Part shown: positions 3,001-23,522 of the stretch, piece after piece
Numbering within the stretch: position 1 is the stretch's first letter
Layout of the letters: every line of letters starts with the position of its first letter
Origin: Spirochaetia bacterium
GTDB lineage: Bacteria > Spirochaetota > Spirochaetia > DSM-2461
Assembly: GCA_963668315.1 (NCBI GenBank)
Contig: OY764216.1
Coordinates: 2,795,407 to 2,819,406, forward strand
DNA: 24,000 nucleotides
Direction: 5' to 3'
Program-made: the position numbers and the translations under genes
The notes under the pieces: model-generated
What the model saw: the letters and a program-made list of their open reading frames with translations, nothing else
Databases searched by the model: none
What the model was told of the DNA's origin: nothing

Positions 3001-3120
3001 CTGGGGCTGGTGGTATGCAGAGAGCTGGCCGGGCTGTGCGGGGGAGACATCGGCGCCGAGAGCACTCCCGGTGCGGGCAGCACATTCTGGGTGGACTTTC
3101 CCCGGAGCCGTGGAGAATGA
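1..3120 (+). CDS. Multidomain sensor histidine kinase, 5'-truncated by the window edge (helical/TPR-like region - GAF - coiled coil - HisKA - HATPase_c)
   Basis: The frame is open from nt 1 (CTC precedes the first ATG at 4), so the N-terminus lies upstream. 'ALRFTHDKIQQACYQL' resembles the end of the ATPase module in kinase-ATPase-GAF-HK fusion proteins. A GAF-like block includes 'ETIGILYLEHRR'. H-box 'LSILGHDLKGPL', N-box 'RNLVNNGVKFTP', G-boxes 'SDTGVGM' and 'GTGLGLVVCRE'. Stop TGA at 3118-3120. Confidence 0.9.
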   Translation, partial: LMTDTGTALRFTHDKIQQACYQLNGKNQLGREHFALACLLMDNRLYSDSDDLFSLVSHLNESFAFVLKEPARFFDIYLAAAVKSRKISAYQEYLHYIGHGRRLLCPDITGERRKKCLSEYHLALHLNGEYEEADDFFEREIREDPDIYLFKENYIAKVSQDSMLGKYGEATQLGLSILEKLDITLDHNPDRNALTEGLRKNRELAEQLGIERVDDLDSVEKRSSGKMEFICGMISALLSGSFFYSPNLSVLLILETIRLAMIYGVFPAMGYPLSFSSILFILTENDYFRGFDYGKYAINISQIDKRSLGHAKHIFILTSWQWKRPLKDNRCLDIARDAFHLLLKGGDIQMSGFIFASTVGCLFERGERLSDCLDELNRGLDYVRKTNNFHALGGYQVYEQFFLSMMSRNASENDFINNGFREKEFLEINSLNFVAQAYLYIYKTQYLFINRQYGLARDYAGRAEKILHCITAFIPVGTFYFYGALLLCRGIGEDSDSDAKLRTYMDQLEEWAGAVPENWLQKYYLVKAESIRFSESRSIEAAQFYTMAIIAAEQNGFIQDLALAQELFSEYWLEQGSGEWSFTLLEQACESYRKWGAVLKLNALLRSDSRLAAKVERKNIDLRSIIKAQNLLARETRLDMLIQKMLKMLLDFSGAEICHLIRCEEEWFIEASLGIADKDVSLTRKNISTETVSTDLVNYVVRTKNEITPEELSIPLSDGYFKKFRPLSTIVVPLLNHSETIGILYLEHRRVKGLFSREKREAIQMLSSQIAVSLLNAELYGTLERRVKERTEELEEMNKELLRADGELRKINRTKDRLLSILGHDLKGPLGGVAKFMELMDEGKIQPSEKLISTMNKSIGNIYDLTEDLLLWARSQSGALVPCPEEIRAGTLIDQVIGVYRMAAEKKKIELVAEGTAEGLALYTDSSMADTILRNLVNNGVKFTPRGGRVSIRAGERENMVRLEVSDTGVGMEKVVSDSLFSIVDKSRQRRGTDDESGTGLGLVVCRELAGLCGGDIGAESTPGAGSTFWVDFPRSRGE

Positions 3121-4847
3121 TGATCCTTTTGCCATCCCTCGTTATTCTGCTGCTGGCACTCACTTTCTACGGCCGTTCCCGGATAATCAAAGTACGGAGA
3201 GAGCTGGTCCAGGTGAGAGAGCAGCTGGAAAGGGGTCTTATGGTCGCCAATATGGGGGTCTGGGAATATGACATTTCATCGAAGAAACTCTATTGGTCCG
3301 ATACCATCTATCATATTACAGAGCAGGACAGGGAAAGGACAACTCCCACCCGGGAAGCTTTCTGGGATCTGATCCACCCCGAGGATAGGGAGATGGTCCT
3401 GGAAAAGCAGAAAGAGAGTTTGAATACCCGCAGAAAGACGGAAATCATCCATAGGATCCTGATGAAAGACGGCCGGGTCAAATGGATTGAGGAGCATCTT
3501 AAGACAGAGTTCGATAAGAGCGGAAACCCTGTGAAATCGGTAGGTACTATCTACGATTTCACCAGACAGAAAGAGGGGGAGCTGATTTTTAAATCTCTCC
3601 TTGAAAATGCTTCCGACGGCATTCATATCCTGGACGAGAAGGGCAATCTGCTCTATTACAGCCGGTCCTTTGCCAGGAGTCTGGGCTATGAATATGATGA
3701 ACTGGAGAACAAGAACATCACCGATTGGGAGGCTAATCTTGACAAGGACCAGATAAGGGCAACCATTAAACTGCTCCTGAAATCGGATATCACCTTTGAG
3801 ACGAAGCACAGAAAGAAGGATGGAACCCTTTTCGATGTTCAAATCAGCGCAACCGATATACTGCTCGACGGTAAAAAGCGCATATATGCCTCCCAACGGG
3901 ATATTTCGGAGCAGAAGCACTATATTGAGCAGCTGAACAAACTGAATATCATGCTGAATACCGCTGCCAAGGTGGGGAAAATAGGATTCTGGGAGCTTGA
4001 CGGGATTTCCGGTAAGGTGGAGTGGAACGAAGCGCTATACGATATCTTTGAAGTGGATGATAAAACCTCCCCCATGGACAGGGAGCGCTTTCTTACCTTT
4101 CTTCCCCCCGAGAAGAAGGATGATCTGATACATAAATTCATGCTTTTTCAAAAGAGGGGGGATTACTCTGTCGTTCACGATATCATTACCGAAAAGGGGA
4201 ACAGGAAAATCGTTGACGAAAGGGGCAGGCATTTCTATGACGGAGAGGGGCGTCTGATCAAGACGGTAGGCAGTGTTATGGATATCACGGAAAGGATCGC
4301 CCGGGAAAGAATCATAAAAAAACAGGCCGTTACCGATGAATTGACCCAGCTGGGCAACAGGAAGGCCTATAACGAACGTCTTTCCGAACTGATAGCCCAG
4401 TATAAGCGGTATCATCTGATCTTCTCCCTGCTGATTTTCGACATCGACCTGTTCAAGGACATTAATGACACCTACGGCCATCATGTGGGTGACCAGGTTC
4501 TGATGGCCCTGGGAAAACTTGTCTCATCCCTCGTCAGGAAAAATGATTTCATTTTCCGGATCGGCGGGGAGGAGTTCGTCATACTCATGTCGGGAACAGA
4601 CATGGAGCACGCCATCCTCCTCGCCGAGAAAGTGCGGCGAGCGATAGAGAAGGATCTGAACGTAATCAGTAACCGGGATGTCACTGTCAGTATCGGCGTA
4701 GGCGAAATGGAGAGGGATGACACGGCCGATTCTCTCTTCCGAAAGGCGGACAAAAATCTTTATCTTGCCAAAAGGTCAGGGCGCAACAGGGTCGTGGGCG
4801 ATCTGTACTCCTTTCCCGCTAAAGGCGCCACTCATACACAATCCTAG
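3117..4847 (+). CDS. Membrane-anchored PAS x3 - GGDEF diguanylate cyclase with an intact I-site
   Basis: ATG at 3117 overlaps the upstream stop (ATGA). It opens a hydrophobic N-terminus, 'MMILLPSLVILLLALTFYG'. The 3015 start in the ORF track is only an in-frame read-through of the upstream gene. Three PAS-like blocks are present (e.g. 'WEYDISSKKLYWSD', 'LLENASDGIHILDEKGNLLYYS', 'FWELDGISGKVEWNEALYDIF'). GGDEF domain motifs are 'DELTQLGNRKAY', 'FDIDLFKDINDTYGH' and active site 'GGEEF'. 'RKND' sits exactly 5 residues upstream of GGEEF (RxxD I-site). Confidence 0.9.
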   Translation: MMILLPSLVILLLALTFYGRSRIIKVRRELVQVREQLERGLMVANMGVWEYDISSKKLYWSDTIYHITEQDRERTTPTREAFWDLIHPEDREMVLEKQKESLNTRRKTEIIHRILMKDGRVKWIEEHLKTEFDKSGNPVKSVGTIYDFTRQKEGELIFKSLLENASDGIHILDEKGNLLYYSRSFARSLGYEYDELENKNITDWEANLDKDQIRATIKLLLKSDITFETKHRKKDGTLFDVQISATDILLDGKKRIYASQRDISEQKHYIEQLNKLNIMLNTAAKVGKIGFWELDGISGKVEWNEALYDIFEVDDKTSPMDRERFLTFLPPEKKDDLIHKFMLFQKRGDYSVVHDIITEKGNRKIVDERGRHFYDGEGRLIKTVGSVMDITERIARERIIKKQAVTDELTQLGNRKAYNERLSELIAQYKRYHLIFSLLIFDIDLFKDINDTYGHHVGDQVLMALGKLVSSLVRKNDFIFRIGGEEFVILMSGTDMEHAILLAEKVRRAIEKDLNVISNRDVTVSIGVGEMERDDTADSLFRKADKNLYLAKRSGRNRVVGDLYSFPAKGATHTQS

Positions 4848-8122: not shown

Positions 8123-9163
8123 ATGAGAATTGCCTTTTTTGACACGAAACCCTATGACGAAGACTCTTTTCGAAGGGAAAACAGGGATTTTGGATTTGAT
8201 ATAACTTTTTTTAATATGAAACTGCACCGTGATACGGCTGTGCTGGCCCGGGATTACGATGTGGTATGCGTTTTCGTAAATGACAGAATTGACGAAGATG
8301 TGCTGGATCTTCTGGTACAGGGAAAAACGCGGCTCATTGCCCTGAGGTGCGCAGGATACAATAATGTGGACCTTAAGTATGCCTACGGGAAAATCCACGT
8401 GGTTCACGTCCCCGCCTACTCGCCCTACGCTGTGGCGGAACATGCCGCGGCCCTGCTGCTGACCCTGAACAGAAAGACCCACCGGGCCCATCTGCGGACC
8501 AGGGAGATGAATTTCACCCTTAACGGACTGACGGGAATGGACCTGTACGGGAAAACCGCCGGGGTTATCGGCATGGGAAAAATCGGGGAAAGGATGGTCT
8601 CCATTCTCTCCGGTTTCGGGATGAAGATTCTGGCCTATGACAAATTCCCCCGAAAGGAGCTCGAAGAGAAGTATCCCCTTTCCTATGCCACTCTGGAAGA
8701 GCTGTACAGAAATTCCGATGTTATTACCCTTCATTGTCCCCTGACCCCGGAGACGGTTCATCTTATCAGCTCGGAAGCCATTGAAATGATGAAGGACGGT
8801 GTGTTCCTCATTAATACAAGCCGGGGAAAACTGATTAATACAAAGGCTCTTATCGGCGGTCTGAAAAGCAGAAAAATCGGAGCCGCCGGATTGGATGTGT
8901 ACGAAGAGGAGTCGGAGTACTTTTTTGAGGACTACAGCAACCAGGTGATTTCCGACGATAATCTGGCCAGACTGCTCACCTTTCCCAACGTACTCATCAC
9001 CTCCCATCAGGGGTTTCTCACCCAGGAGGCTCTGGACAGCATCGCCGGAACCACCCTGGCGAATATCCGCGACTTTACCGAGGAGAAAGATCTCCCCAAT
9101 GAGATCTGCTACCAGTGCGGAAGGGAGGAGTGCCGGAAATCCAGGGAGGGCAGGTGCTTCTGA
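8123..9163 (+). CDS. ldhA: D-lactate dehydrogenase / D-isomer-specific 2-hydroxyacid dehydrogenase with a Cys-rich C-terminal tail
   Basis: Colinear with E. coli LdhA as I remember it: 'MRIAFFDTKPYD', 'RCAGYNNVDL', 'VPAYSPYAVAEH', 'GKTAGVIGMGKIG' (NAD fold), 'HCPLTPET', 'NTSRG', 'GLDVYEEE', 'ITSHQGFLT'. AAAGGAG lies 8 nt upstream of ATG 8123. The track's 7514 start is an unsupported extension running antisense through the amidohydrolase gene. Confidence 0.9.
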   Translation: MRIAFFDTKPYDEDSFRRENRDFGFDITFFNMKLHRDTAVLARDYDVVCVFVNDRIDEDVLDLLVQGKTRLIALRCAGYNNVDLKYAYGKIHVVHVPAYSPYAVAEHAAALLLTLNRKTHRAHLRTREMNFTLNGLTGMDLYGKTAGVIGMGKIGERMVSILSGFGMKILAYDKFPRKELEEKYPLSYATLEELYRNSDVITLHCPLTPETVHLISSEAIEMMKDGVFLINTSRGKLINTKALIGGLKSRKIGAAGLDVYEEESEYFFEDYSNQVISDDNLARLLTFPNVLITSHQGFLTQEALDSIAGTTLANIRDFTEEKDLPNEICYQCGREECRKSREGRCF

Positions 9164-9264
9164 GTCAGGGGGATTTCTCCGAATAGCGGACGAAGTAAGG
9201 GAACGGCTGTTCTGTTTTTCGTCCCTTTCCGGAAATTCCGTCCTTGGCGCAGTATATTTCTTCC

Positions 9265-10323
9265 ATGAAATATACTGCCCTGCTTTTAACCCTTTCCCTA
9301 ATCTGGCTGACCACCGGCTGCGGGTACCTTTTTCTCGATGACCCGCAAAGTTCCGGGACGGATCTTTCCTCCGCCGGTCCCGAAGACTCTTCCGTTCCGA
9401 ACCATGTCATAGGGACGGGAACCCCGGAAAGCTGTACGGCCCGGGATTTTCTTGATGCCGTCGCGCAGGGGGGTGTCATCACCTTCAACGGGGGAACGGA
9501 ACCATTTACCCTTACCCTCGATTCTCAGGCCGAAGTTCACAATGACGGTCTTCCGGATGTGGTCATAGACGGAGGGGGACTTGTCACCCTCAGCGGAGGG
9601 GATACCACGAGAATCCTCTATATGAATACCTGCGATCCCCGGCTCACATGGACCACATCCCACGGTGATAATCAGGACCACCCCAGGCTCACCGTCCAGA
9701 ATCTCACCTTCGCCCATGGCAACTCCTCTGCAGACGAGGCGTACAGCGGGGGCGGGGCTATCTGGGCCCGGGGAGGACGTTTCAAGGCGGTGAACTGTAC
9801 CTTTGTCGGTAACAGGGCCGAATCGGAAGGGCCCGATACGGGGGGCGGGGCCATCAGGGTGTTCGACCAGTACGAGGATCTTCCCGTCTATATCAACGGC
9901 TGCACCTTCGGCGGGGGAGAGAACAAGGGGAACAGCGCCTCTAACGGCGGGGCCCTTTCAAGCATCGGGGTCTCCTGGACTATCATCGATTCCCTTTTCT
10001 CCTATAACCTTGCCACCGGGAGAGGCGGGAATCCCGCCGAAGAGGGCACTCCGGGCGGCGGGAGCGGCGGGGCCATATACAACGACGGCAACGAAATGAC
10101 ATTGACCATAAGGAATTCGATAATAGAAGAGAATAGCGTCAACGCCTACGGAAGCGCTCTGTTCTTTGTCTCCAACAACCATACGGGAAATATCGTTATT
10201 GAGTCGAGCCGTATTTCCTCCAATCACGGCGGCTCCTGGTATCCCAGGTACGAAGGGATTTCCATGCACAGCGACACCCCCCTTTCTGTGACCGATTCGG
10301 TGATAGAGAATAACAGAAACTGA
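9265..10323 (+). CDS. Secreted lipoprotein with parallel beta-helix / polymorphic-membrane-protein-like (GGAI) repeats
   Basis: ATG 9265 gives 'MKYTALLLTLSLIWLTTGC', a signal peptide plus a lipobox-like Cys. The track start at 9244 is a TTG. The motif 'GGGAI/GGAL/GGAIY' recurs four times, alternating with 'F.GN / FSYN / IEEN / ISSN' turns, which is typical of right-handed beta-helix (PbH1/PMP) repeats. Confidence 0.7.
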   Translation: MKYTALLLTLSLIWLTTGCGYLFLDDPQSSGTDLSSAGPEDSSVPNHVIGTGTPESCTARDFLDAVAQGGVITFNGGTEPFTLTLDSQAEVHNDGLPDVVIDGGGLVTLSGGDTTRILYMNTCDPRLTWTTSHGDNQDHPRLTVQNLTFAHGNSSADEAYSGGGAIWARGGRFKAVNCTFVGNRAESEGPDTGGGAIRVFDQYEDLPVYINGCTFGGGENKGNSASNGGALSSIGVSWTIIDSLFSYNLATGRGGNPAEEGTPGGGSGGAIYNDGNEMTLTIRNSIIEENSVNAYGSALFFVSNNHTGNIVIESSRISSNHGGSWYPRYEGISMHSDTPLSVTDSVIENNRN

Positions 10324-10394
10324 GTGTTTCCCCCTTCCCCCGGGGATTTGAAAAATACTCCTTTGCTGCTATTATTGTATGAAAAGGAGAACAT

Positions 10395-10697
10395 ATGATT
10401 TATCTGAGTGTGTCAATGATTATCAAAGAGGGAAGGATGGATGATTTTCTGGAAGTCTGCCGTGAAATCCGGCCTCTGGTCCTGGCCGAGGAGGGCTGTC
10501 TTATGTACGATCATACCCGTGATCTTGATGCGAACGGCGAAGACTACAACGAAAGGCGCATTACCCTTTATGAGAAATGGTCCGGTCAGGATGCCCTGGA
10601 TGCCCACCTTAAAACCGGTCATATGGCCCGGTTCTCCGAAGCTGTGGCGGATATGAGGGAAAAGGTGACCGTTCACAGAAGTACCGAAGCCTATTAG
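10395..10697 (+). CDS. ABM-fold (antibiotic biosynthesis monooxygenase / YgiN-like) small protein
   Basis: About 100 aa with a ferredoxin-like pattern: 'IKEGRMDDFLEVCREIRPLVLAEEGCLMY...ITLYEKWSGQDALDAHLKTGHMARF'. AAAAGGAG lies 5 nt upstream of the ATG. Confidence 0.7.
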   Translation: MIYLSVSMIIKEGRMDDFLEVCREIRPLVLAEEGCLMYDHTRDLDANGEDYNERRITLYEKWSGQDALDAHLKTGHMARFSEAVADMREKVTVHRSTEAY

Positions 10698-10757
10698 TCA
10701 CGGCGATAATCCGGCCACGCGACAGGTCATCCCCATAGAAGATCGTGATGAAATAAA

Positions 10758-10786
10758 TTGACATAATCCCTTATGTGAATAACAAT
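10758..10786 (+). promoter_or_regulatory. Candidate sigma-70-type promoter for the MCP gene (TTGACA - 17 nt - AACAAT)
   Basis: A perfect -35 hexamer sits at 10758-10763. After a 17-nt spacer there is a 4/6 -10 match at 10781-10786, about 30 nt upstream of ATG 10816. It is embedded in ACATAA/TTATGT repeats. Pattern match only. Confidence 0.3.
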
Positions 10787-10815
10787 TTACATAAATACCC
10801 CCGGGAGTTGGTGTC

Positions 10816-12921
10816 ATGATAACTAAACAGTTCGGATTAAGAATACAGATCGTTCTCGTCACATCCCTTCTGGTCGCTTTCATAGCCGGAAGCAGCGCCT
10901 ATAATATTATTAAGGCTAACCAGATGAGAAAGAGCTATCAGAATGTCATGGAGGGCGTCGTCGCCAGGAAATCCAATCTGCTCGCTCTGGATGCCGAATT
11001 GAACAGAACATTGCTTCTGGAACTGGAATTCAGCAGCAATCTGGATGACCGGTTCCATGAACTGGCCATGGACTCCTATGGCGAGAGCCGCAACATTCTG
11101 GCCCGGCTGGAAGAAATGGAGCGGAATTCTACCGGCTCCGGAGACCTGGAAAGGGTGAAATCCCTCGAGAATTACCTCTCCCGGATGGGTGAGCTTGTCG
11201 TTTCCATACGTGACAGAACCGTGACAAAGGGACTGACCCAGGATGTGGGATTGAGAGGGGCCTTCCGTGACGCCGCCCATGATCTGGAGGCCGTCATTGA
11301 GGAGCATAGCGATGATGCCATGATGGTGGCCTATCTTATGCTCAGGAGACATGAGAAGGACTATCTCCTCCGGCTCGATAAGAAGTATGTCGCAAAGAAT
11401 CATGATGCGGTGCTTGAGCTTGATCGCCTGATAGAGAGCAGGTACGGTTCGTCAGGAATCAGCCTCTCCCTCCGGAATATCCTGGAACAGTACCAGACGG
11501 ATTTCGGAAAACTGATTCAGATTAATGACGAGCTGATGGAGCTGAATGATCAGAGGGATACTCTTCTTGTCGATATAGAAAGGGAGATAGACTCCTTTCT
11601 GGAAGATGTGGAGAATCAGCAGAATCTCGAATTCAGTTTTATCCTGGAAAATATATCCCGGACCCGGCTCCTCACCCTCCTCGTTTCGGGACTGGCTGTG
11701 CTGGCGGCCCTTTTCATGACTCTGGCTCTGGTCCTGCGCATCAGCAGGCCTATGACGCTGGCCCTTGAGAGTGCCGACTGCCTGGCGCGGGGGGATTTGA
11801 CCCATGAAGGGAGCTACAGGCGAAACGATGAGATGGGGGATATCATCGGAGCTATCAACTCCGCCTCCCAGGCCCTTGCCGTCCTCATGAGGGAATCGGT
11901 TTCCGTTGTCCGGGAAGGCAGGAAAACCAGCGAGTATCTGGCTTCGGGCAGCGAAGAGACCCAGACGGCCATTGTGGAAATTCAGGCCAATCTCTCTTCC
12001 CTGAAGGACATGGGGGTGACCCTTTCCGAGATAAGCGGTAAGACCCTGGGGGCCACGGAGAAAATCAACGGCGGCGTCAATCAGCTTGATGCCATGATCG
12101 ACAGCCTCAGTTCCGGGATCGGGGACACGACATCCGCCATTGAGCAGATGATCGCCAATATCAGAAATGTCAGCGATATCTCAGGTAAGAAGGAGTCAAC
12201 CATCACGGAACTGCTGGAAACTGCCCGGGCAAGCGGGGAGGATATCAGAAGAACGGGGGTTCTGACGGAGGAAATATCCGGCCTCGCCCAGGAGATAAGC
12301 AAAATAATCGGTGTCATCAACGGAATTGCCGCACGGACAAATCTTCTGGCCATGAACGCGGCAATCGAAGCGGCCCATGCCGGCAATGCCGGGCGGGGAT
12401 TCGCCGTTGTGGCCGATGAAATCCGCAAACTGGCTGAATCGTCGGGAACAAATGCGTCTCAGATCGGCCAGATGCTGGGGAATATCACAGACCGGATCGG
12501 CCTGGTCGCCCGCTCCTCCCAAAGCAGTACGGCCGGTTTCGACCGCATTGTGGACGCCATTCAGAGTTTTACCTACTCCTTTTCAGAGATAGTCGGCTCC
12601 ATGGATGAAATGGCGGCCGGTTCGACCCATGTCCTTGAAGCATCACAGCATATGAAGGATGAGCTCGAAGCGGTTTCAGGCATGGCCGGCGAAATCTCCG
12701 GGGAGACCGGAGCCATACATACCGAATCGGAAAATATGAACGGGCAGATACTCAGTCTGGCCCGGGGAATTGAAGAGATATCCCTGGCTCTCACAGATAT
12801 AATGAACAGCTCCCGTACCGTGGCCGACTCCGCCAGGGACAGCAGGGAGCAGATGGAAAAGCTTCATGGAAAGATTCTCCACTTCAGGATCGATGAAGAG
12901 TCTTCCCGGGACGACCTTTAA
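10816..12921 (+). CDS. Methyl-accepting chemotaxis protein (TM1 - ~250-aa helical periplasmic sensor - TM2 - HAMP - MA signalling domain)
   Basis: TM1 is '[19 protein letters not shown]' and TM2 is '[23 protein letters not shown]'. HAMP motif '[21 protein letters not shown]'. The canonical hairpin tip is '[38 protein letters not shown]'. Confidence 0.92.
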
Positions 12922-12924
12922 GAG

Positions 12925-12979
12925 CCGGGAGCAACTTACGCGTTCTTGATATCCTCAAAGCCTCCCGGTTTTTCTTTTT
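12925..12979 (+). terminator. Possible intrinsic terminator after the MCP gene
   Basis: CCGGGAG (12925-12931) pairs with CTCCCGG (12962-12968) and is followed by TTTTTCTTTTT. The 30-nt loop is unusually long, so confidence is low. Confidence 0.3.
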
Positions 12980-13034
12980 CCCCTGGCAGATGTGACATTC
13001 TGTGCATTATTTTGATAAGTGGGGTATAAAAAAT

Positions 13035-13063
13035 TTGCAATTACTCTTCCCGTAAACAATACT
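13035..13063 (+). promoter_or_regulatory. Candidate sigma-70-type promoter for the stressosome operon (TTGCAA - 17 nt - AATACT)
   Basis: The -35-like hexamer is at 13035-13040, followed by a 17-nt spacer and a -10-like hexamer at 13058-13063. It lies about 100 nt upstream of the rsbR ATG. Pattern match only. Confidence 0.3.
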
Positions 13064-13071
13064 TTAATAGG

Positions 13072-13099
13072 GATATCTTTGTTCGCAAATGATATCTTT
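13072..13099 (+). promoter_or_regulatory. GATATCTTT direct repeat / imperfect inverted repeat with a TTCG loop in the rsbR leader
   Basis: GATATCTTT occurs at 13072-13080 and 13091-13099. GATATCTTTG (13072-13081) and CAAATGATATC (13086-13096) are reverse complements apart from one bulged nucleotide, and they flank TTCG. The element lies just downstream of the candidate -10. Confidence 0.3.
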
Positions 13100-13161
13100 C
13101 CGTGATTGAAAACTTATCATTCCGGCAGATGGCGGAAAAAGTCATTTAGGAGTTGAGTTGT

Positions 13162-13962
13162 ATGGAAAAAAGAGGACATGCCGATTTAGGCGATGAACAG
13201 TCGTCGATAGTCTTGAATCAGATTCCCACGCCGGTAATGGCCGTGGACAGGGATATGAATATCATTTTTCTGAATAATTCCGGATGCCGGTTCCTGGGGA
13301 AAAAATGGGAAGAGGTAAGGGGCTGCAAATGCTACGATATCGCCCGTACTGAACACTGCAATACGAAGAACTGCCGGATGACTCAGGTCATGGAGGGAGG
13401 GGAGTCGCTTACCGTGAGGAACTCCCTCAGCATAAACGGCCAGATGGTCCCCGTGGAATATACCACCGATGCCCTGAAGGATGAGGAGGGGCATATCATC
13501 GGCGGACTTGAATACATAATCGATATCACGGAGAAAGTCCGGCAGGAGAAAAAACTGAAGGAGCAGAGCCGTACGATTCTGGAGATATCCACACCCGTCA
13601 TCAAACTATGGGAAAAAATCCTTATTCTGCCCATCGTAGGGGTGGTCGACTCTTTCCGGGCCCAGCAGATGATGGATTCCATGCTCACCAAGCTCAAGGA
13701 TACCGGTTCCAAAATAATCATACTTGATATTCAGGGCGTGGCTGCCGTAGACACAGCTGTCGCGAATCATCTGATAAAAATCGCCAAGGCGACCCGCCTG
13801 ATGGGCTGCCGTTGCATCATCTCGGGAATATCCCCTTCCGTCGCTCAGACCCTGGTGCAGCTGGGAATAGATATGGGTTCCATAATAACCAATTCCGACC
13901 TGCAGGAAGCCCTTGCCGATGCTTTCCAGATGCTCCATTACCGTGTGAGTAAGAGTGAATAA
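13162..13962 (+). CDS. rsbR: Stressosome sensor RsbR-type protein: N-terminal Cys-cluster PAS domain plus C-terminal STAS domain
   Basis: AGGAG lies 9 nt upstream of ATG 13162; the track start at 13153 is a TTG abutting the RBS. The C-terminus, 'LWEKILILPIVGVVDSFRAQQMMDSML...IILDIQGVAAVDTAVANHLIKIAKATRLMGCRCIISGISPSVAQTLVQLGIDM', matches the RsbR-family STAS domain and includes both Thr phospho-acceptor contexts (VDT, AQT). The N-terminal PAS carries 'GCKCYDIARTEHCNTKNC'. Confidence 0.85.
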   Translation: MEKRGHADLGDEQSSIVLNQIPTPVMAVDRDMNIIFLNNSGCRFLGKKWEEVRGCKCYDIARTEHCNTKNCRMTQVMEGGESLTVRNSLSINGQMVPVEYTTDALKDEEGHIIGGLEYIIDITEKVRQEKKLKEQSRTILEISTPVIKLWEKILILPIVGVVDSFRAQQMMDSMLTKLKDTGSKIIILDIQGVAAVDTAVANHLIKIAKATRLMGCRCIISGISPSVAQTLVQLGIDMGSIITNSDLQEALADAFQMLHYRVSKSE

Positions 13963-14369
13963 TGGCTTCGTCCCTTTCCTCCGGTCCCCATGATGATTAC
14001 TCATCCTGCGGTATCTATGAGATGGACGGCTGCATGATCGTCCCTGTCCCGGGATTTATTCACCGCTCCCTTGTCGATGAGCTTAAAGCGCGGGTTCTGT
14101 CAGGTATAGATAAACAGCCGGTAAGGGGCATTATCATGGATATGTCTGCGGTCCCGGTGCTGGAGGGGCTTCTCTTCTCTCTTTTTTATGAGATGGTGAA
14201 AATGATAGAGCTCATGGGTGTCAGAACGGTCTTTGTGGGATTTCAGCCCGGAGTGGCAGTGACCCTTGTTGATCTGGATGTGGATATCCACGATATAGTT
14301 ACCGCCTTCGATCTTAAAGACGGAATGTCCCTGCTGGATGACCTGTCAGCGGAGATCTTTCATGAATGA
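13962..14369 (+). CDS. rsbS: Stressosome scaffold RsbS-type single STAS-domain protein
   Basis: The ATG overlaps the rsbR stop (TAATG). The STAS pattern 'GIIMDMSAVPVLEGLLFSLFYEMVKMIELMGVRTVFVGFQPGVAVTLVDLDVD' parallels B. subtilis RsbS ('...[23 protein letters not shown]'). The true start could be the internal Met at 'MDGCMIVPV'. Confidence 0.8.
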   Translation: MASSLSSGPHDDYSSCGIYEMDGCMIVPVPGFIHRSLVDELKARVLSGIDKQPVRGIIMDMSAVPVLEGLLFSLFYEMVKMIELMGVRTVFVGFQPGVAVTLVDLDVDIHDIVTAFDLKDGMSLLDDLSAEIFHE

Positions 14370-14778
14370 TCGGGAGCCCCGGGAACAATCCGTCGCCATA
14401 GACTGGCCCGGAGACAATGCCCATGCGGTCGTGGTGGCCAGAAAGGTTGCCGGAGACCTGGGGTTTCAGGCCGTTCCGGTAACCCTGATCGCTACGGCCG
14501 TATCGGAGCTGACGACAAACATCATAAAATATGCCGGTAGGGGCATCATACACCTCCGTCCTATCCGCGAAAACGGAAGGACGGGAATTGAAATCTCCGC
14601 AGAAGATTCCGGGCCGGGCATACCCGATCCTGAAAGTGCCATGAGGGAACAGTTTTCCACCGGGGGCAGTCTGGGACTGGGAATCCCGGCGGTGAAGAGA
14701 ATCATGGACTCCTTTGAACTGACTACGATTGTCGGCAAGGGGACCTGCGTCACCGTTCGAAAGTGGAGAGAGGACTGA
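14362..14778 (+). CDS. rsbT: RsbT-type serine/threonine switch kinase (GHKL ATPase fold)
   Basis: 'MND...' N-terminus as in B. subtilis RsbT. N-box 'AVSELTTNIIKYA', 'ISAEDSGPGIPD', 'STGGSLGLGIPAVKRIMDSFEL...GKGTCVTVRKW'. ATG 14362 overlaps the rsbS stop by 8 nt. An upstream ATG at 14338 is also in frame. Confidence 0.85.
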   Translation: MNDREPREQSVAIDWPGDNAHAVVVARKVAGDLGFQAVPVTLIATAVSELTTNIIKYAGRGIIHLRPIRENGRTGIEISAEDSGPGIPDPESAMREQFSTGGSLGLGIPAVKRIMDSFELTTIVGKGTCVTVRKWRED

Positions 14779-15365
14779 TGGACGCCGTTGATTACGCCCT
14801 GAGAAAGGAGGCTTTCATCGGCGGCGACGATGAATGCGGCGATACGGGGGTTATCCGGGAATATGAGGATAAGCTGCTTCTTGCTCTGGTTGACGGTCTC
14901 GGCCATGGAGCAAAAGCCCACAGGGCGGCGGTCCTGGTGGAAGAGTACCTGGAAGAGCATTACCGTGAATCCCTGGAGAGCCTGCTCCTGGGCCTTCATG
15001 ATAACCTGAAGGGATCGGTGGGTGCCGTCGCGGGTATCGGTCGCTTCCATCGTGATACGGGGGAGTTCAGCTACTGCGGCATAGGAAATATCCTGGTACG
15101 TCTCTATGGCAGTTTCGGCCGAACCTTTGTCTCCCGGGATGGTGTCCTGGGATTTAATATGCCCTCTCCCCGTACGGAGACCGTCCTCCTGGAAAGGGGG
15201 GATATCCTGGTCTTCACATCCGACGGCCTGTCCAGTCATATCAGCCGGGACGGGTATCAGAATCTTCTGAGGGGAACGGCGGGAGAGATTGCCGATCGTT
15301 TTATGGAAAAATTCAGAAGGGAAGATGATGCCTCCTGCCTGGTTCTGAGGTATATGCCATGGTAA
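14778..15365 (+). CDS. rsbX: RsbX-type PP2C-family feedback phosphatase
   Basis: The ATG overlaps the rsbT stop (TGATG). Motifs parallel B. subtilis RsbX: 'CGDTGVI' (CGDSFF), 'LVDGLGHG' (VADGLGSG), 'FSYCGIGNI' (FTYCSVGNV), 'VFTSDGL' (IIHTDGL), 'DDASCLVL' (DDLTYIL). About 195 aa. Confidence 0.8.
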
Positions 15366-18064
15366 ACCTGGGCCAGATCCTTCCCGAGTCTTGCAGAAAG
15401 AAGTATAAATTCGGTCATTTCATTATCAATCTGGCCATGGATTACGGTTTTTCCGATATTCAGGCAACCCAGTGGGCGGCTTACTCTTCGGAACTGGTAA
15501 AAACGGGAAGGGATGAATATTTGGTGACACCCGTTACCATCTTCCTTGAGGACAGACATGGACAGGCCCATCTGGGAATAACGTTGAGAGAGCTGGATCT
15601 GGTTGATAGGCATCATCCCTATCTCGCCTTTTTTGACGAGTCTTTTGCCCGGGAGGAGGGGGGAACTCTCTCTCTGACCCTTTTGAAGAAGCTGCCCGAT
15701 CCCACTGTGATGGGGGATTCGGACCTGATAGGAAAATGGCAGGGACGTTTTTCCGAGCCGACAAAGGATTCCCTTTTCAGAATACTGCAGAAACAGAATC
15801 TTGAACTGGAAAAAGCGAAGGAAGAGGCCGAGGCCGCCACTAAGGCCAAGGGGGACTTTCTGGCTAACATGAGCCATGAAATAAGAACCCCCATGAATGC
15901 CATAATCGGCCTGAATTCCCTTTTGGCCAAAACGGATTTGAATAAAAAGCAGCTGGACTATGTTAACAAGATCAGCCATTCGGCCCTGAGCCTTCTGGGA
16001 ATTATCAATGATATCCTTGATTTTTCCAAGATTGAAGCGGGGAAAATGGCCATAGAGAAGACGCCCTTTCAGCTTAATGAAGTTCTCGATAACCTCTCCA
16101 GTCTGGTGGGAGAGAAAGTATGCGGGAAGGACCTGGAGCTGGTTTTCAACTATGATATGGAAATTCCCCATACGCTGATAGGCGATCCCCTTCGTCTGGG
16201 GCAGATCCTTCTGAATCTTACCAATAACGCGGTGAAATTTACCGAAAAGGGTGAGATCGTTGTTTCCGCCGCCCTGGTGGAGAAGAGTGAAAGGGACGTA
16301 ACGATTCTTTTTAAAGTCACCGATACGGGAATCGGCCTGACCCGGGAGCAGAGTGATAGGCTTTTCCAGTCCTTTTCACAGGCGGATACGTCCACGACAA
16401 GAAAATACGGGGGAACTGGTCTGGGACTGGCGATCAGCAAGAATTTGTCCGAACTGATGGGCGGTTCCATCGGCGTGGAGAGCGAATACGGAAAGGGGAG
16501 CACGTTCTATTTCACCACAATTATGGGGATAGGAAGGGAAAAGGTCTGCCGTATTCCTCCCCGGGAGCTGAAGGGGCTTAATGTTCTCGTCGTGGATGAT
16601 AACGAGACAGCCCGTGATGTGCTCTGCGCCTATCTGGAGGATTTTTCCTTCCATGTGAATGCCGTCAGGAACGGAGAACAGGCATGCCGTGAGATTATTA
16701 CGGCGAAAGCGGCTGAAGGGAAGGAGTACGACCTGGTGCTGATGGACTATAAAATGCCCGGAATAAACGGTATCGAAACGGCCCTGAAAATCCGTACGGA
16801 ACTGGAGAATATCAGAGACCCGAAGATTATCATGGTTACCGGCATGGGCAGGGAAGAGATTATTTGGAAGGCCGATGAAATCTCCCTGGACGGCTTTCTC
16901 ATCAAACCCGTCAGTCCGTCCATGCTGTTTGATACCATCATGGATGTTTTCGGCAGAAAAATTCAGGTCTTCTCTAACCTCCGTGAGGAGAGAGAGGCTA
17001 AACCTGAGGGTTTTGAGGGAATACGGGGCGCCCGCATACTGCTGACAGAGGATAACGATATCAATCAGCAGGTGGCAGGAGAGACCCTGGAGCAGGAGGG
17101 CTTCATTGTCGATTTTGCCGATAACGGGCAGGAAGCGGTGGATAAAGCGTCTCTGACCCCATATGACTGCATTCTCATGGATCTCCAGATGCCCGTTCTT
17201 GACGGATACCAGGCAACGGCGAAAATACGGGAGAAAGCATCCTTTGGGGATCTTCCGATTATCGCGATGACTGCCGATGCCATGGTGGGGGTGAAGGAGC
17301 GGACACTGAAAGCGGGAATGAATGACTATGTCACCAAGCCCTTTAATCCCTCGGAGCTCTGGAGGGCCCTCGTGAGGTGGATTCCCCAGGGAGACCGGAC
17401 GGTGCCAGTAAGGAAAAACAGGGAAGGAGCAGGCTCCGCCGATGGGGGGGGAAGTCTTCTCTCCACCCTGGCCGTCGAGGGACTGAACAGCGAGGCTGGT
17501 CTGAGGCGGCTGAACGGAAACGGGACGCTATATCTCAGTCTTCTTCGTAAATTCATCAGGGATTTCTTATCTTCCCCCGCTGACATAAGGGAGCGGCTCT
17601 CCCGGGGAGACGGTAAGGGCGCCGAGAGAATAGCCCATACGGTCAAAGGCGCGGCGGGGAACATCGGTGCCGAGGATGTGCAGAATCGGGCGGCAGAACT
17701 GGATCGGGTTTTGAAGAAGGAGGGGGCGGTTCCCGAGGCTTTACTCCTTGACAATCTTGAAAAAGCCCTGGAGCTTCTGGGCGAGTCACTGGAAAAAAGC
17801 GGCCTGGTCGGGGAAGAGGAAATCCCCGCTGAGACGTCGGGCAGGACGATCTCCCGGGATGAGGCCCGTACACTTCTTGAGGAGCTTCGGGAGATCATCA
17901 AGACAAGGCAGCCGAAGCGGTGTGCGGCGTTTCTGGACAAATGGGACAGCCGGCATTTCCCGGAGGACTGCCGAGAGGATATGCAGGAACTATATGCCAT
18001 TATCAGCGGGTATCGGTTCCGGGACGCCGGCCGGCTTGTGTCGGAGATCCTGGAGCGGTTTTAA
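15359..18064 (+). CDS. Cytoplasmic hybrid histidine kinase: unassigned ~150-aa N-terminal domain - coiled coil - HisKA - HATPase_c - REC - REC - HPt
   Basis: The ATG overlaps the rsbX stop by 7 nt. No hydrophobic TM segment is visible. H-box '[14 protein letters not shown]', N-box '[11 protein letters not shown]', G-boxes 'DTGIGL' and '[11 protein letters not shown]'. REC1 is 'VLVVDDN...[10 protein letters not shown]...LIKPV' and REC2 is 'ILLTEDN...[10 protein letters not shown]...YVTKPF'. HPt motif '[13 protein letters not shown]'. Confidence 0.9.
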
Positions 18065-18078
18065 TTCTGTCCGTTCAG

Positions 18079-18098
18079 GAGGATCCATTCAGATCCTC
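18079..18098 (+). other. Intercistronic hairpin between the hybrid HK and the HD-GYP regulator
   Basis: GAGGATC (18079-18085) pairs with GATCCTC (18092-18098) around a 6-nt loop. No U-tract follows. The 5' arm contains an AGGAGG with no start codon at SD distance. Confidence 0.3.
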
Positions 18099-18118
18099 AG
18101 GCAAGCAGGAAGGGTTTT

Positions 18119-19231
18119 ATGATTACGTTGGAAGATAAGGATGTTTTGATTGTAGATGATACGGAGAGTAATCTGGACATGCTCATGTATGCCCTGCAGG
18201 ACTCCTATCGAATCAGCGTCGCCCTGGATGCCGAATCGGCCTTTGATATTCTGGAAAATACTGTTCCCGATCTAATCCTCCTCGATGTCGTCATGCCGGG
18301 AATGAGCGGCTTCGATATGTGCCGGTTACTGAAGAATAACCCCCGCTACAGTGATATTCCCATTATCTTCCTGACCGTTATGGATCAGCTCGCCGATAAA
18401 ACGAAGGGGTTCGAGCTGGGAGCTGTTGACTACATAACCAAGCCCTTTGAGATTCCCGAGGTAAAAGCAAGGGTGAGAAGTCAGCTTCTGCTTCACGAAG
18501 CCACGGGGCAGTTAGCCAGGCAGAATGAACTCCTGGAGGAGAAGGTGAGGGAGCGGACCCGTGAACTGGAAGACACGCAGGACATAACCATAAACAGCCT
18601 GGCCTTTCTGGCCGAGATAAGGGATAACGAGACGGGCAGTCATATCAGGAGAACGAGAAACTATATCCAGGCGCTTATTGAGGAACTGACGGGCAAGGGG
18701 CATTTCAGGGAGATTCTGACGGAGCAGAGAAAAGGACTTATGGTCAAATCCGCCACCCTCCACGACATCGGCAAAGTGGGGATTCCCGATCGTATCCTCA
18801 TGAAGCCGGGACAGCTGACAAACGAGGAATTCGATTTTATGAAAAAGCATACCGAATTGGGGAAGGAGGCTCTGGTGAAGTCGAACCGGGGCATGGGAAA
18901 CTGCTGTTTTCTGTCCCATGCTATTAAATTCGCCTATTCCCACCATGAGAAATGGGACGGCTCCGGCTACCCCTGCGGATTTGCCGGTGAGGATATCCCC
19001 CTGGAAGGACGGCTTATGGCCATTGCCGATGTGTATGATGCCCTGATCTCCACCCGGATTTATAAACCGCCCTTTTCCCATTCAAAGGCCTGCGCCATTA
19101 TCAAGGAGAGCTGCGGGACCCATTTCGATCCTCTGATGGTCCAAACCTTTGAAGCGGTTAATAATCAGTTCCGACACATAGCGGAACAGTTCTGCGACAG
19201 TGAGAAGGAGTGGATAGCACTCCAGGAATAA
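18119..19231 (+). CDS. Response regulator with an HD-GYP output domain (c-di-GMP phosphodiesterase, RpfG-like)
   Basis: REC domain: 'VLIVDDTESN...LILLDVVMPGMSG...ITKPF'. A coiled-coil linker follows. HD-GYP domain: 'HIRRT', 'LHDIGKVGIPDRIL', 'HHEKWDGSGYP', 'IADVYDAL'. AGGAAGGG lies 4 nt upstream of the ATG. Confidence 0.9.
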   Translation: MITLEDKDVLIVDDTESNLDMLMYALQDSYRISVALDAESAFDILENTVPDLILLDVVMPGMSGFDMCRLLKNNPRYSDIPIIFLTVMDQLADKTKGFELGAVDYITKPFEIPEVKARVRSQLLLHEATGQLARQNELLEEKVRERTRELEDTQDITINSLAFLAEIRDNETGSHIRRTRNYIQALIEELTGKGHFREILTEQRKGLMVKSATLHDIGKVGIPDRILMKPGQLTNEEFDFMKKHTELGKEALVKSNRGMGNCCFLSHAIKFAYSHHEKWDGSGYPCGFAGEDIPLEGRLMAIADVYDALISTRIYKPPFSHSKACAIIKESCGTHFDPLMVQTFEAVNNQFRHIAEQFCDSEKEWIALQE

Positions 19232-19261
19232 AACCGGAGAGATCCGGCGGGATCCGCTAGA

Positions 19262-19435
19262 TCAGCGGTTAATGATGATTTTGCCCTCTTCGTGAGGAGC
19301 AACCTCGCGGTAAGAGCTGTCATTCAGATATCGGCATACCCCGAGAACAATTCTTCTGGTTTTTTGACTGAGATCCCTGTTGACCAGGACTCTTTTCAGA
19401 TAAAGAAGATCCTTTCGTTTAAATGTTCTTGTCAT
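19262..19435 (-). CDS. Small hypothetical basic protein (57 aa), below the ORF-track cutoff
   Basis: My own minus-strand translation is MTRTFKRKDLLYLKRVLVNRDLSQKTRRIVLGVCRYLNDSSYREVAPHEEGKIIINR. AGGAG lies 6 nt upstream of the ATG (19435), and the stop TGA is at 19264-19262. '...RRIVLGVCRYLNDSSYREVA' loosely resembles a helix-turn-helix. No family assignment is possible. Confidence 0.35.
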   Translation of the reverse strand: MTRTFKRKDLLYLKRVLVNRDLSQKTRRIVLGVCRYLNDSSYREVAPHEEGKIIINR

Positions 19436-22388: not shown

Positions 22389-23522
22389 TTATTCAAGGCT
22401 GAAACCTTTTTCTTCCGCCGAATTTCTTATGGCATCAATGATAGCCGAATCCAGGGTGGACTCGTCGTTTTCCTGCAGAAGGGCCTGCTGCTCGATGATA
22501 TAAGCCTCCCTTTCAGTGCTCAATCTGCCTATCTCCTCCTGAAGGGCCGCCCGTTTCCGCTGCATTTCCGTGAGGTAAGCCTCCCTCTCCTCATTATTCA
22601 TATTTCTCATCTCCTCGGGCAATTCCGCCGGCATGACCTGGGACAGGACTTCCTCCGACTCACTGTAGGCGTCCACCAGATCCCAGTCGGCATTGCTGTA
22701 GCTTTCGGAAGATTTCACCTTGGCCCTTTCCAGAAAACTGCCCCTGTCCATCATCATGGCATTGGCATCTTGGGCTTCCTGCCTCTCCTTTTTCTCATAA
22801 CCCGATGACCCATAGCCCAGATAGGTTTCATTCAGAAGCCGGTTCAGCTCCTCAAGTCGGTCATCCTGGGGAGAACGGATATAGCGGGAGACGTAATCGC
22901 TGTTTATATTCATAAATGCTCCTCCGCCCAGAAAAGCTCCCTCTTCCCAGAAGGTGCGCCGTCCTTCTTCGGCATCTCCGCAGAATATGGTATTAACGGT
23001 AATGTCCTTACGTGAGGAAAGGCGCAGCGCCCGGGTAAAATCTACCGGTCCCTGGTTGAAAGGCTCATTCCCCGCGATAAACATGAGACGCAGGGTTTCG
23101 GGGCGGTTATCCCAGTCCAGTTCTCCGGTGGCGGCCGCAATAACATTCCCGCAGTATTCGCTTCCCCCGTTAGTCGTGAGGGAAAACAGAACCTGGGAGA
23201 GATAGTCCAGATCCGAAGTGAAGGGAACAACCTGCCGGATGTAGCCGTCAAGAACGGATAGGCCGTCATTGCCGTATTCGTAGAGTCCTACTTCAAGGCG
23301 TGGCTGTTCTCCCCGTCTCCTTTCACGGGCCGTATGGGAAACGATTTTCCATAGCTGGCTTTTCGCCTGGTTGATTAGGCCGTCCATGCTGTTCGAAGTG
23401 TCCAGAAGGAGGGCCACCTGGATAAGGGGGGTATTCCCGGGGTAACCGTCATAGGGCGATACCTGGGCGCTCAGGGCGGCTGCGGTCAGGGTTATCCATA
23501 AAATAAAGCTGGTCTTTTTCAT
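22389..23522 (-). CDS. Secreted von Willebrand factor type A (vWA) domain protein with a C-terminal coiled coil
   Basis: Signal peptide 'MKKTSFILWITLTAAALSAQ'. MIDAS motif 'LLLDTSNSMDG' (DxSxS), then 'TNGGSEY' and 'FIAGNEPFN'. The C-terminal ~100 aa are heptad-like and Glu-rich ('EEREAYLTEMQRKRAALQEEIGRLSTEREAYIIEQQALLQE'). AGAGAGGTGA lies upstream of the ATG. A 9-nt gap separates it from the HK gene. Confidence 0.8.
   Translation of the reverse strand: MKKTSFILWITLTAAALSAQVSPYDGYPGNTPLIQVALLLDTSNSMDGLINQAKSQLWKIVSHTARERRRGEQPRLEVGLYEYGNDGLSVLDGYIRQVVPFTSDLDYLSQVLFSLTTNGGSEYCGNVIAAATGELDWDNRPETLRLMFIAGNEPFNQGPVDFTRALRLSSRKDITVNTIFCGDAEEGRRTFWEEGAFLGGGAFMNINSDYVSRYIRSPQDDRLEELNRLLNETYLGYGSSGYEKKERQEAQDANAMMMDRGSFLERAKVKSSESYSNADWDLVDAYSESEEVLSQVMPAELPEEMRNMNNEEREAYLTEMQRKRAALQEEIGRLSTEREAYIIEQQALLQENDESTLDSAIIDAIRNSAEEKGFSLE

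Follow-up and report, generated by a model that had tools for sequence, protein, structure and literature searches.

The locus described here raises the question of how a stressosome may address an output other than the sigma-B pathway. It lies in a stretch of 24,000 nucleotides (nt) from a Spirochaetia bacterium (contig OY764216.1 of assembly GCA_963668315.1, positions 2,795,407 to 2,819,406), referred to below as the window, in which six consecutive open reading frames (ORFs) on the forward strand (13162-19231) encode RsbR, RsbS, RsbT, RsbX, a 901-residue hybrid histidine kinase (HK), and a regulator made up of a receiver (REC) and an HD-GYP domain. An earlier interpretation, here termed the sequence-only reading, had proposed a path from the RsbR/RsbS complex through RsbT and the hybrid HK to the REC-HD-GYP regulator and the hydrolysis of cyclic di-GMP (c-di-GMP). 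Domain profiles and gene order indicate that the operon is real, well conserved, and of a known type, combining a stressosome, a phosphorelay, and an HD-GYP output. What is new concerns the junction between the first two: the N-terminal domain (NTD) of the kinase appears to be a pseudokinase adaptor derived from RsbT, heptad-locked to the kinase core and accompanied by co-varying changes in RsbT and RsbS.

Single-sequence searches say little about the NTD. With residues 1-150 of the kinase, nothing informative was found in Pfam (at E-values up to 10), among PDB sequences, or in a word-indexed protein search, and an exhaustive phmmer search returned only 6 matches; profile searching of PDB sequences gave only noise, as did a member-wise Pfam scan, and a word-indexed search with an enlarged NTD alignment gave one match. 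The domain is conserved at the extreme N terminus of 40 of the 120 best HK homologues, with the consensus elements MIELG..., LGF..I.AtR.AT.FSEL, FFD, LPD, and PSREELL..L..KN.EL, and it is the comparison of profiles that points to its origin. When a profile of 38 NTD sequences was aligned by hhalign with a profile of 88 RsbT sequences from the collected loci, the probability was 97.8% (E = 9.6e-13) over 107 aligned columns (NTD 6-112, RsbT 15-140), with a single 19-residue gap that takes out precisely the last part of the G1 box together with the ATP lid and the G2 box; with the same query, the controls gave 20% for the catalytic and ATP-binding (CA) domains of HKs, 0.9% for RsbS, 0.4% for receivers, and 0.2% for RsbX. 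A hidden Markov model (HMM) of the NTD only matches 49 of 86 genuine RsbT ORFs, in register and with E below 1e-4, and the RsbT HMM matches an archaeal NTD with a domain E-value of 9e-6.

The AlphaFold2 model of the NTD, obtained with the family alignment as input, has a mean predicted local distance difference test score of 90.3 and a predicted template modeling (TM) score of 0.82. In a Foldseek search of the PDB, its top 7 matches are all GHKL anti-sigma serine kinases (RsbW 6m37, UsfX 8ih8, and SpoIIAB 1til, 1tid, 1th8, and 1l0o), but it should be noted that, with probabilities of 0.97-1.0, the E-values are only about 5e-3 and the TM-scores only 0.36-0.52. The NTD shares with RsbW, SpoIIAB, and UsfX the topology beta1-alpha1-alpha2-beta-beta...beta-beta, but differs from them in having no nucleotide-binding motif and no ATP lid and in being fused to a histidine kinase. 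Where RsbT reads SELTTNIIKY, the NTD reads SELVKTG, so that the N-box Asn is gone; the DxGxG motif is likewise missing, and the deletion removes both the ATP lid and the G2 box. Because these elements are absent despite the homology with RsbT, the NTD is, on the evidence of profiles and of a predicted structure, an RsbT-derived pseudokinase domain in which the GHKL fold has been kept. Two other identities were considered and rejected. RsbU_N, the RsbT-receiving domain of Bacillus RsbU, gives no Pfam match even at E-values up to 10 and differs in motifs and in fold, the NTD model being of the alpha/beta GHKL type; a duplicated HK CA domain is disfavored by the hhalign probability of 20%, as against 97.8% for RsbT. 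No earlier description of an RsbT-like kinase domain was found in the openly searchable literature, beyond the reach of which most subscription journals lie.

The NTD is joined to the kinase core in an unusually constrained manner. In an AlphaFold2 model of HK residues 1-233, one continuous helix (136-191) leaves the NTD and passes through the phospho-accepting His173. Among 34 homologous kinases in which HisKA follows the NTD without a PAS domain in between, the phospho-accepting His lies 32, 39, 46, 53, 74, or 81 residues from the P-S/T-R-E-x-L motif in every case (34/34), values that are all 4 mod 7 (32 + 7n). Since the length of the linker varies in whole heptads only, it probably forms a coiled coil whose register matters.

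The RsbT that accompanies an NTD is also altered. NTD-type RsbTs are best told apart from the others by the alignment columns corresponding to Bacillus positions 19, 20, 93, 16, 17, 43, and 22. Arg19 is 94% conserved in non-NTD loci and is replaced by Val in 83% of NTD-type RsbTs, whereas Gly93, 92% conserved in non-NTD loci, is kept in none of 23 NTD-type sequences. Residues Arg19, Arg23, Asn24, and Asp92 are implicated in RsbU binding by published work (PMC12143880). The changes at positions 19 and 93 thus fall on the published RsbU-contact surface, which indicates that the output surface of RsbT has been replaced in exactly those systems that have an NTD output. The new surface is itself conserved and is hydrophobic (Val19, Ala16, and Ala22).

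Two sets of loci were examined: 8 contigs found through HK homologues (protein-first), and 80 genome loci found through an RsbT profile and scanned with our own HMMs (RsbT-first). The closest HK homologue, 93% identical, is encoded on a 1.85-Mb metagenome contig (L001) with the same neighbors, including a protein with a Treponema TP_0021_N domain, and the best genomic relatives of RsbT are in Spirochaetales and Spirochaetaceae metagenome-assembled genomes (MAGs) and in Oceanispirochaeta; both point to the Spirochaetota as the most likely source of the window. Genes for PAS-STAS, STAS, HATPase_c_2, and SpoIIE proteins lie directly upstream of the kinase in 8/8 protein-first contigs, which include Desulfobacula phenolica and an Oleidesulfovibrio, the overlap between rsbX and the HK gene being usually 4 nt; the same R-S-T-X-HK order is present in many of the 80 RsbT-first loci. 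With such recurrence, the tight gene order is not due to chance. The NTD has been found only at the N terminus of the ORF directly after rsbX, in 8/8 protein-first contigs, in every occurrence among the 80 RsbT-first loci, and in Vibrio aquimaris. Its bearers include Spirochaetota, Desulfobacterota, Myxococcota, a planctomycete, Catenovulum, HTCC2080, Halioglobus, and a Methanomicrobia archaeon, as well as V. aquimaris. Of the rsbX-HK-HD-GYP synteny for which the sequence-only reading had proposed a survey, the first part holds throughout the 8 contigs, whereas the last is variable: a REC-HD-GYP gene is within two genes of the NTD-HK gene in 15/24 loci and is absent or displaced in 9/24.

Kinases with RsbU_N-like N termini, recognizable by an AYELGR motif, occupy the same position after rsbX in loci L011, L056, L058, L073, and L081. 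The NTD and RsbU_N thus stand at the same gene position, both on varied outputs, which suggests that they are interchangeable adaptors. The Halioglobus protein starts with the NTD, followed by a coiled coil, a PP2C domain, and an RsbW-like kinase, so that in this lineage the NTD takes the place of RsbU_N on a PP2C phosphatase; in three loci (L035, L043, and L046; about 8926-11687) the gene for this 553-residue protein comes directly after one for an RsbT-RsbX fusion of 375 residues, and the output looks like a self-contained partner-switching enzyme. In a Planctomycetaceae locus (L031, 9974-13957), the NTD kinase is followed not by REC-HD-GYP but by a REC-PP2C regulator similar to RsbY, from which it follows that the same input adaptor feeds different outputs. 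The archaeal locus, from a Methanomicrobia MAG (L076, 7724-11672), has a full rsbR-S-T-X set, a 409-residue NTD histidine kinase, and a stand-alone receiver, and its NTD is the member of the family most directly recognized by the RsbT HMM. In two Polyangiaceae/Sorangium loci (L029, 9782-10225; L057, 10046-10453), rsbX is separated from the gene for an RsbU_N-type histidine kinase by that of a second RsbT paralogue, whose catalytic motifs are intact and which may represent an evolutionary intermediate toward the fused pseudokinase. In Acidobacteriota (L009, L014, L017, L033, and others), rsbX is followed by an unannotated ORF of about 300 residues, then by the gene for a 210-residue receiver protein and, at a greater distance, by that for a GGDEF protein.

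The upstream components are those of a stressosome. The sequence-only reading had assigned STAS, GHKL, and PP2C domains to them; all six products of the operon have Pfam domains above the gathering cut-offs, and the nearest structures are those of stressosome proteins. For the STAS domain of RsbR, the closest solved structure is V. vulnificus RsbR (7o0i_B, E = 1e-45), followed by Listeria RsbR (E about 1e-27). Ser164 and Thr198 of RsbR are equivalent to the phosphorylation sites Thr171/Thr205 of Bacillus (Thr175/Thr209 of Listeria), and among 12 orthologues, Ser164 is invariant and Thr198 nearly so. The N-terminal domain of RsbR is PAS_4 by Pfam, and no globin-type heme-binding sensor is present on it. 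The PAS domain contains a motif, C57-x7-H65-C66-x4-C71 (CYD...HCxTxxCRM, window 13330-13374), that is kept in 10/12 orthologues from spirochaetes, Desulfobacterota, and Myxococcota, whereas conservation does not extend to Cys42 and Cys55 of the window protein; the conservation of the motif suggests a possible metal, Fe-S, or redox-sensing site. RsbX (SpoIIE, 5.7e-11) is closest to Moorella MtX (3zt9, 3.6e-18) and B. subtilis RsbX (3w40, 3.5e-16). RsbT (HATPase_c_2, 2.2e-13) has Glu49 and Asn53 of the N box, D82-x-G84-x-G86 of the G1 box, and the GLGLG of the G2 box, all invariant in the alignment. The retention of these catalytic motifs, together with the presence of RsbX, indicates that phosphorylation still matters, presumably on RsbR.

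RsbS departs from the Bacillus pattern. It is recognized by Pfam as a STAS protein (2e-10) and matches the RsbS structures of Listeria, Moorella, and Bacillus (E about 1e-13), but in the alignment the position of the phospho-serine (Ser56 of Listeria, Ser59 of Bacillus) is occupied by Gly69 (codon 14166-14168, in PVLEGLLF). At this site Gly is also found in L001 and Arg in L002, with Ser in L003-L005; Gly, Arg, Pro, or Ala replaces the serine in loci including L002, L012, L031, and L035, nearly all of which are NTD-output systems. The serine is missing in 8/23 NTD-type loci as compared with 3/61 others (Fisher p = 0.001, not corrected for phylogeny), and 2 of the 3 serine-lacking loci without an NTD are truncated contigs, of spirochaete or Desulfobacteraceae origin.

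These observations can be combined in a mechanism in which RsbR of the PAS type, with its Cys3His motif, and RsbS would build the stressosome core; the core would hold the active serine kinase RsbT, and RsbX would reset phosphorylation. The output would be a cytoplasmic hybrid HK in which a dead RsbT paralogue is joined to the histidine of the dimerization and histidine phosphotransfer domain by an uninterrupted, heptad-locked helix. Freed RsbT would contact the NTD together with the first part of the helix, in a manner comparable to the binding of RsbU_N and its linker by Bacillus RsbT, and in doing so would fix the register of the coiled coil and switch HK autophosphorylation. Phosphate would then pass from His173 to a receiver Asp, then to the His of the histidine phosphotransfer (HPt) domain, and reach the REC-HD-GYP regulator at its Asp, so altering the hydrolysis of c-di-GMP. 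That the pseudokinase NTD receives the stressosome signal, most likely through RsbT binding, is the best-supported model, the specific contact being given a probability of about 0.45. The overall path from stressosome to HK to HD-GYP is held with more confidence than this contact between RsbT and the NTD, which, like the direction of the switch, is proposed from sequence and remains provisional.

Several points weigh against RsbT binding to the NTD as the coupling step. The V. vulnificus study failed to detect an interaction between VvRsbT and VvD1 (PMC9237108), and in the V. vulnificus-like D1 of Vibrio sp. THAF191d (L090), the N terminus is only weakly NTD-like, with a clear match in the linker motif only. 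The shift in the RsbT surface may partly reflect clade divergence, as NTD-type RsbTs may be monophyletic and the comparison is uncorrected for phylogeny. The absence of the RsbS phospho-serine here and in 8/23 NTD-type loci means that the Bacillus release mechanism cannot apply unchanged, and, as judged from the alignments, release driven by phosphorylated RsbS cannot be the universal switch in NTD-type systems. At the position aligned with Arg19 of RsbT and Arg20 of SpoIIAB, most NTDs keep Arg, the residue that the co-encoded RsbT has lost, but the NTD of the window has Gly. Finally, sigma-70 promoters and intrinsic terminators bounding the operon occur in counts at chance level, the promoter being inferred only.

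In the principal alternative, the NTD would act as a mimic of RsbT, retaining the ability to bind STAS domains, and the HK dimer would dock on RsbS and RsbR in competition with RsbT; RsbT would write and RsbX erase the phosphorylation of RsbR Ser164 and Thr198, thereby releasing or capturing the HK. The homology with RsbT extends over the whole domain, and pseudoenzymes often retain partner binding. The Arg retained by most NTDs and lost by their RsbTs is in keeping with docking, as are the failure to detect a VvRsbT-VvD1 complex and the concentration of RsbS serine loss in NTD-type loci, which suggests a switching logic other than RsbT release driven by RsbS phosphorylation. Histidine kinases are dimeric, and the stressosome surface presents RsbS and RsbR in dimeric form (PMC9237128). 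Docking does not, however, account for an RsbU-binding surface of RsbT that has turned conserved and hydrophobic, and the NTD has no ATP lid. In the SpoIIAB-SpoIIAA structures the lid is part of the STAS interface, and sequestration of any kinase but RsbT is not known for a stressosome. On balance, docking is regarded as unlikely, although it is the best placed of the alternatives.

A different mechanism, suggested for V. vulnificus by Heinz et al. 2022 (PMC9237108), is that RsbT phosphorylates the NTD or the linker on Ser or Thr, without a stable complex, and so changes HK activity. The catalytic motifs of RsbT are all kept even where the RsbS serine has been lost, and there are conserved Ser and Thr residues in the NTD and linker (AT..SEL and P-S/T-R-E). 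No specific site is indicated by the sequences, however; the conserved Ser164 and Thr198 of RsbR are sufficient substrates to explain the retained kinase activity, and the heptad constraint and the exchange with RsbU_N better fit a helix mechanism driven by binding, so that transient phosphorylation appears improbable. Least probable of all is that the HK and the HD-GYP regulator are an independent two-component system that merely adjoins a stressosome, with the NTD as a degenerate dimerization or ligand-binding domain: although the REC-HD-GYP partner is missing from its place in 9/24 loci, the start/stop overlap between rsbX and the HK gene is conserved across phyla, the NTD was never found away from rsbX in the 80 RsbT-first loci, and its homology is specifically with RsbT and not with HK CA domains.

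If the role of the NTD as a receiver of the stressosome signal is extended to the family as a whole, the domain would be a second general stressosome-output adaptor, one that stands in for RsbU_N on both histidine kinases and PP2C phosphatases and is present in Spirochaetota, Desulfobacterota, Myxococcota, Planctomycetota, Gammaproteobacteria (including Vibrio), and a methanogenic archaeon. In that role it would receive the signal either by contact with its RsbT paralogue or by its own occupancy of the RsbT site on the STAS core, and would pass it on through a register-locked coiled coil. This extension is offered just as tentatively as the coupling step itself.

Stressosome modules linked to outputs of this kind have a history. 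Pane-Farre et al. reportedly catalogued, in 2005, RsbR-S-T-X (RSTX) modules with two-component or c-di-GMP outputs downstream. Heinz et al. 2022 describe RSTX modules from many phyla, with eleven downstream architectures that include HisKA/REC phosphorelays and c-di-GMP enzymes; some of the outputs carry RsbU_N and most, including V. vulnificus VvD1, do not (PMC9237108). A stressosome that leads to c-di-GMP hydrolysis instead of sigma-B is the published working model for V. vulnificus rsbRSTX-D1-D2 (PMC9237108, PMC10014275). The VvD1-VvD2 locus resembles the present one in its gene order, with R-S-T-X ahead of genes for a hybrid sensor kinase and for a regulator whose predicted role is c-di-GMP degradation, in its lack of a sigma-B arm and of an RsbU_N domain on the kinase, and in its RsbR STAS domain (7o0i), the closest solved relative. 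It differs in having a heme globin sensor where RsbR here has a PAS domain with a Cys3His motif; the Gly at the RsbS phospho-serine site, the absence of a PAS domain between NTD and HisKA, and the spirochaete host are also points of difference, and an RsbT-like kinase N terminus has not been reported for Vibrio. In V. aquimaris (L086), nevertheless, the architecture is identical: RsbR-S-T-X, a 913-residue HK with an NTD and REC-REC-HPt, and then REC-HD-GYP; Vibrio sp. THAF191d has the same layout of RSTX, hybrid kinase, and c-di-GMP regulator. With a model published for V. vulnificus and the same cassette in V. aquimaris, the central inference of the sequence-only reading is sound in its architecture and direction of flow, which domain profiles and cross-phylum synteny bear out, but was already known for another organism.

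The sequence-only reading had also taken the Bacillus pathway as its template, and this fits in part. The RsbR/RsbS STAS core, the GHKL kinase RsbT, and the PP2C reset phosphatase RsbX are shared with the SigB pathway of B. subtilis and Listeria, and there too the output has an N-terminal RsbT-receiving domain and a coiled-coil linker to the effector (PMC12143880). The template does not extend to the RsbS phospho-serine or to the RsbT-like domain of the HK. In contrast with Bacillus and Listeria, rsbX directly follows rsbT, Arg19 and Gly93 of RsbT are replaced, and the receiving domain is an RsbT-like pseudokinase rather than the four-helix RsbU_N. The outputs that do carry RsbU_N, such as the Moorella thermoacetica diguanylate cyclase MtG and the RsbU_N histidine kinases of Proteobacteria, are similar in that a second-messenger enzyme or HK is placed under a stressosome through an N-terminal adaptor and a helical linker, but the adaptor fold is unrelated, with an AYELGR-type motif there and a GHKL-like fold here.

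Downstream of the linker, the hybrid HK has the H-box sequence SHEIRTP and the N, G1, and G2 boxes, and both receivers keep the acidic pocket, phospho-Asp, Thr, and Lys; its NCBIfam similarity is to kinases of the BarA/TorS type, under the equivalog cut-offs. The motifs HDIGK and HHEKWDGSGYP of the regulator align with PA4781 (4r8z, 1.8e-57) and PmGH (4mcw, 3.7e-38), and NCBIfam places it with the NosR-family c-di-GMP phosphodiesterases (3.8e-41); it is thus a predicted c-di-GMP phosphodiesterase, its enzymatic activity being deduced from these motifs.

The positions of these features are collected in Table 1. The gene junctions described in the sequence-only reading, a series of start/stop overlaps and a 54-nt gap, are all present in the sequence. 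Those of rsbR with rsbS and of rsbT with rsbX are TAATG at 13960-13964 and TGATG at 14776-14780 (rsbX ATG at 14778), respectively; rsbS and rsbT share ATGAATGA at 14362-14369, an 8-nt overlap, and rsbX and the HK gene share ATGGTAA at 15359-15365, a 7-nt overlap that begins with the HK ATG at 15359. This HK start is supported by the N-terminal M-[IV]-x-L-G kept in homologues. For rsbT, with its ATG at 14362, the in-frame ATG at 14338 could serve as an alternative start, but on contig L001 the gene caller placed the start at the position equivalent to 14362. The gap separates the end of the HK gene (18064) from the start of the REC-HD-GYP gene (18119). The overlaps and the synteny suggest that the six genes are probably co-transcribed. 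A riboswitch in the 240-nt leader was considered and rejected, as no Rfam match was found.

Table 1. Coordinates of the operon and of the domains that it encodes (positions in the window; residues of the respective protein)
Feature	Residues	Position	Strand	Domains or evidence
Intergenic region upstream of rsbR		12922-13161	+	240 nt; operon promoter and ribosome-binding site presumed (AGGAG at 13149-13153)
rsbR		13162-13962	+	PAS_4 + STAS
RsbR PAS sensor	18-127			Pfam PAS_4, 1.7e-16
RsbR STAS	151-237			Pfam STAS, 6.5e-16
rsbS		13962-14369	+	Single STAS
rsbT		14362-14778	+	GHKL serine kinase, HATPase_c_2
rsbX		14778-15365	+	Single-domain PP2C phosphatase, SpoIIE
Hybrid HK gene		15359-18064	+	HisKA + HATPase_c + 2x Response_reg + Hpt
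HK pseudokinase domain (NTD)	1-134	15359-15760	+	Profile-profile comparison and predicted structure
HK signaling helix, from PTKDSLF motif through phospho-accepting His173 (codon 15875-15877)	136-191	15764-15931	+	AlphaFold2 model of residues 1-233
HK catalytic core: HisKA; HATPase_c	163-228; 275-386	15845-16516	+	Pfam, 4.2e-21; 7.3e-28
HK receiver domains (two)	~409-525; 560-670	16583-17368	+	Pfam Response_reg, 2.2e-48, two stretches
HK HPt domain	728-807	17540-17779	+	Pfam Hpt, 1.7e-10
REC-HD-GYP regulator gene		18119-19231	+	Response_reg + HD_5/HD
Regulator domains: REC; HD-GYP	9-119; 173-338	18119-19231	+	Response_reg, 1.7e-25; HD_5, 1.7e-31

A profile search that covered the larger ORFs of the window found neither a sigma factor nor RsbU, RsbV, or a free-standing RsbW; the statement of the sequence-only reading that these are missing is correct for whole genes only, as the HK contains an RsbT-like domain. 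The remaining ORFs encode a GAF histidine kinase, a PAS-GGDEF protein, a GH35 glycosidase, an amidohydrolase, a 2-hydroxyacid dehydrogenase, a methyl-accepting chemotaxis protein, and a convergent HK/OmpR pair. At 4-4847, the ORFs for the 1038-residue GAF histidine kinase and the PAS-PAS-GGDEF protein overlap by about 100 nt as longest-ORF calls, and the latter places a diguanylate cyclase 8 kb upstream of the HD-GYP operon. A 57-residue ORF without a family match (19262-19435, reverse strand) is convergent with the HD-GYP gene and is also called as a gene in L001 (13904-14077); a short hairpin lies between the two (19233-19248). ORFs at 9244-10323 (forward strand, 359 residues) and 22389-23522 (reverse strand, 377 residues) have no Pfam match, and both are called genes in L001.

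The coupling of stressosomes to their outputs outside the Firmicutes is an acknowledged gap, and a dead RsbT paralogue on the kinase turns it into testable questions of partner, surface, and helix register. The NTD also provides a sequence signature by which RSTX loci can be sorted according to the type of coupling. The RsbS phospho-serine, essential in Bacillus, appears to be dispensable in several NTD-type lineages, and the kinase itself would illustrate how a signaling enzyme, after duplication, lost its activity and became part of its own output protein.

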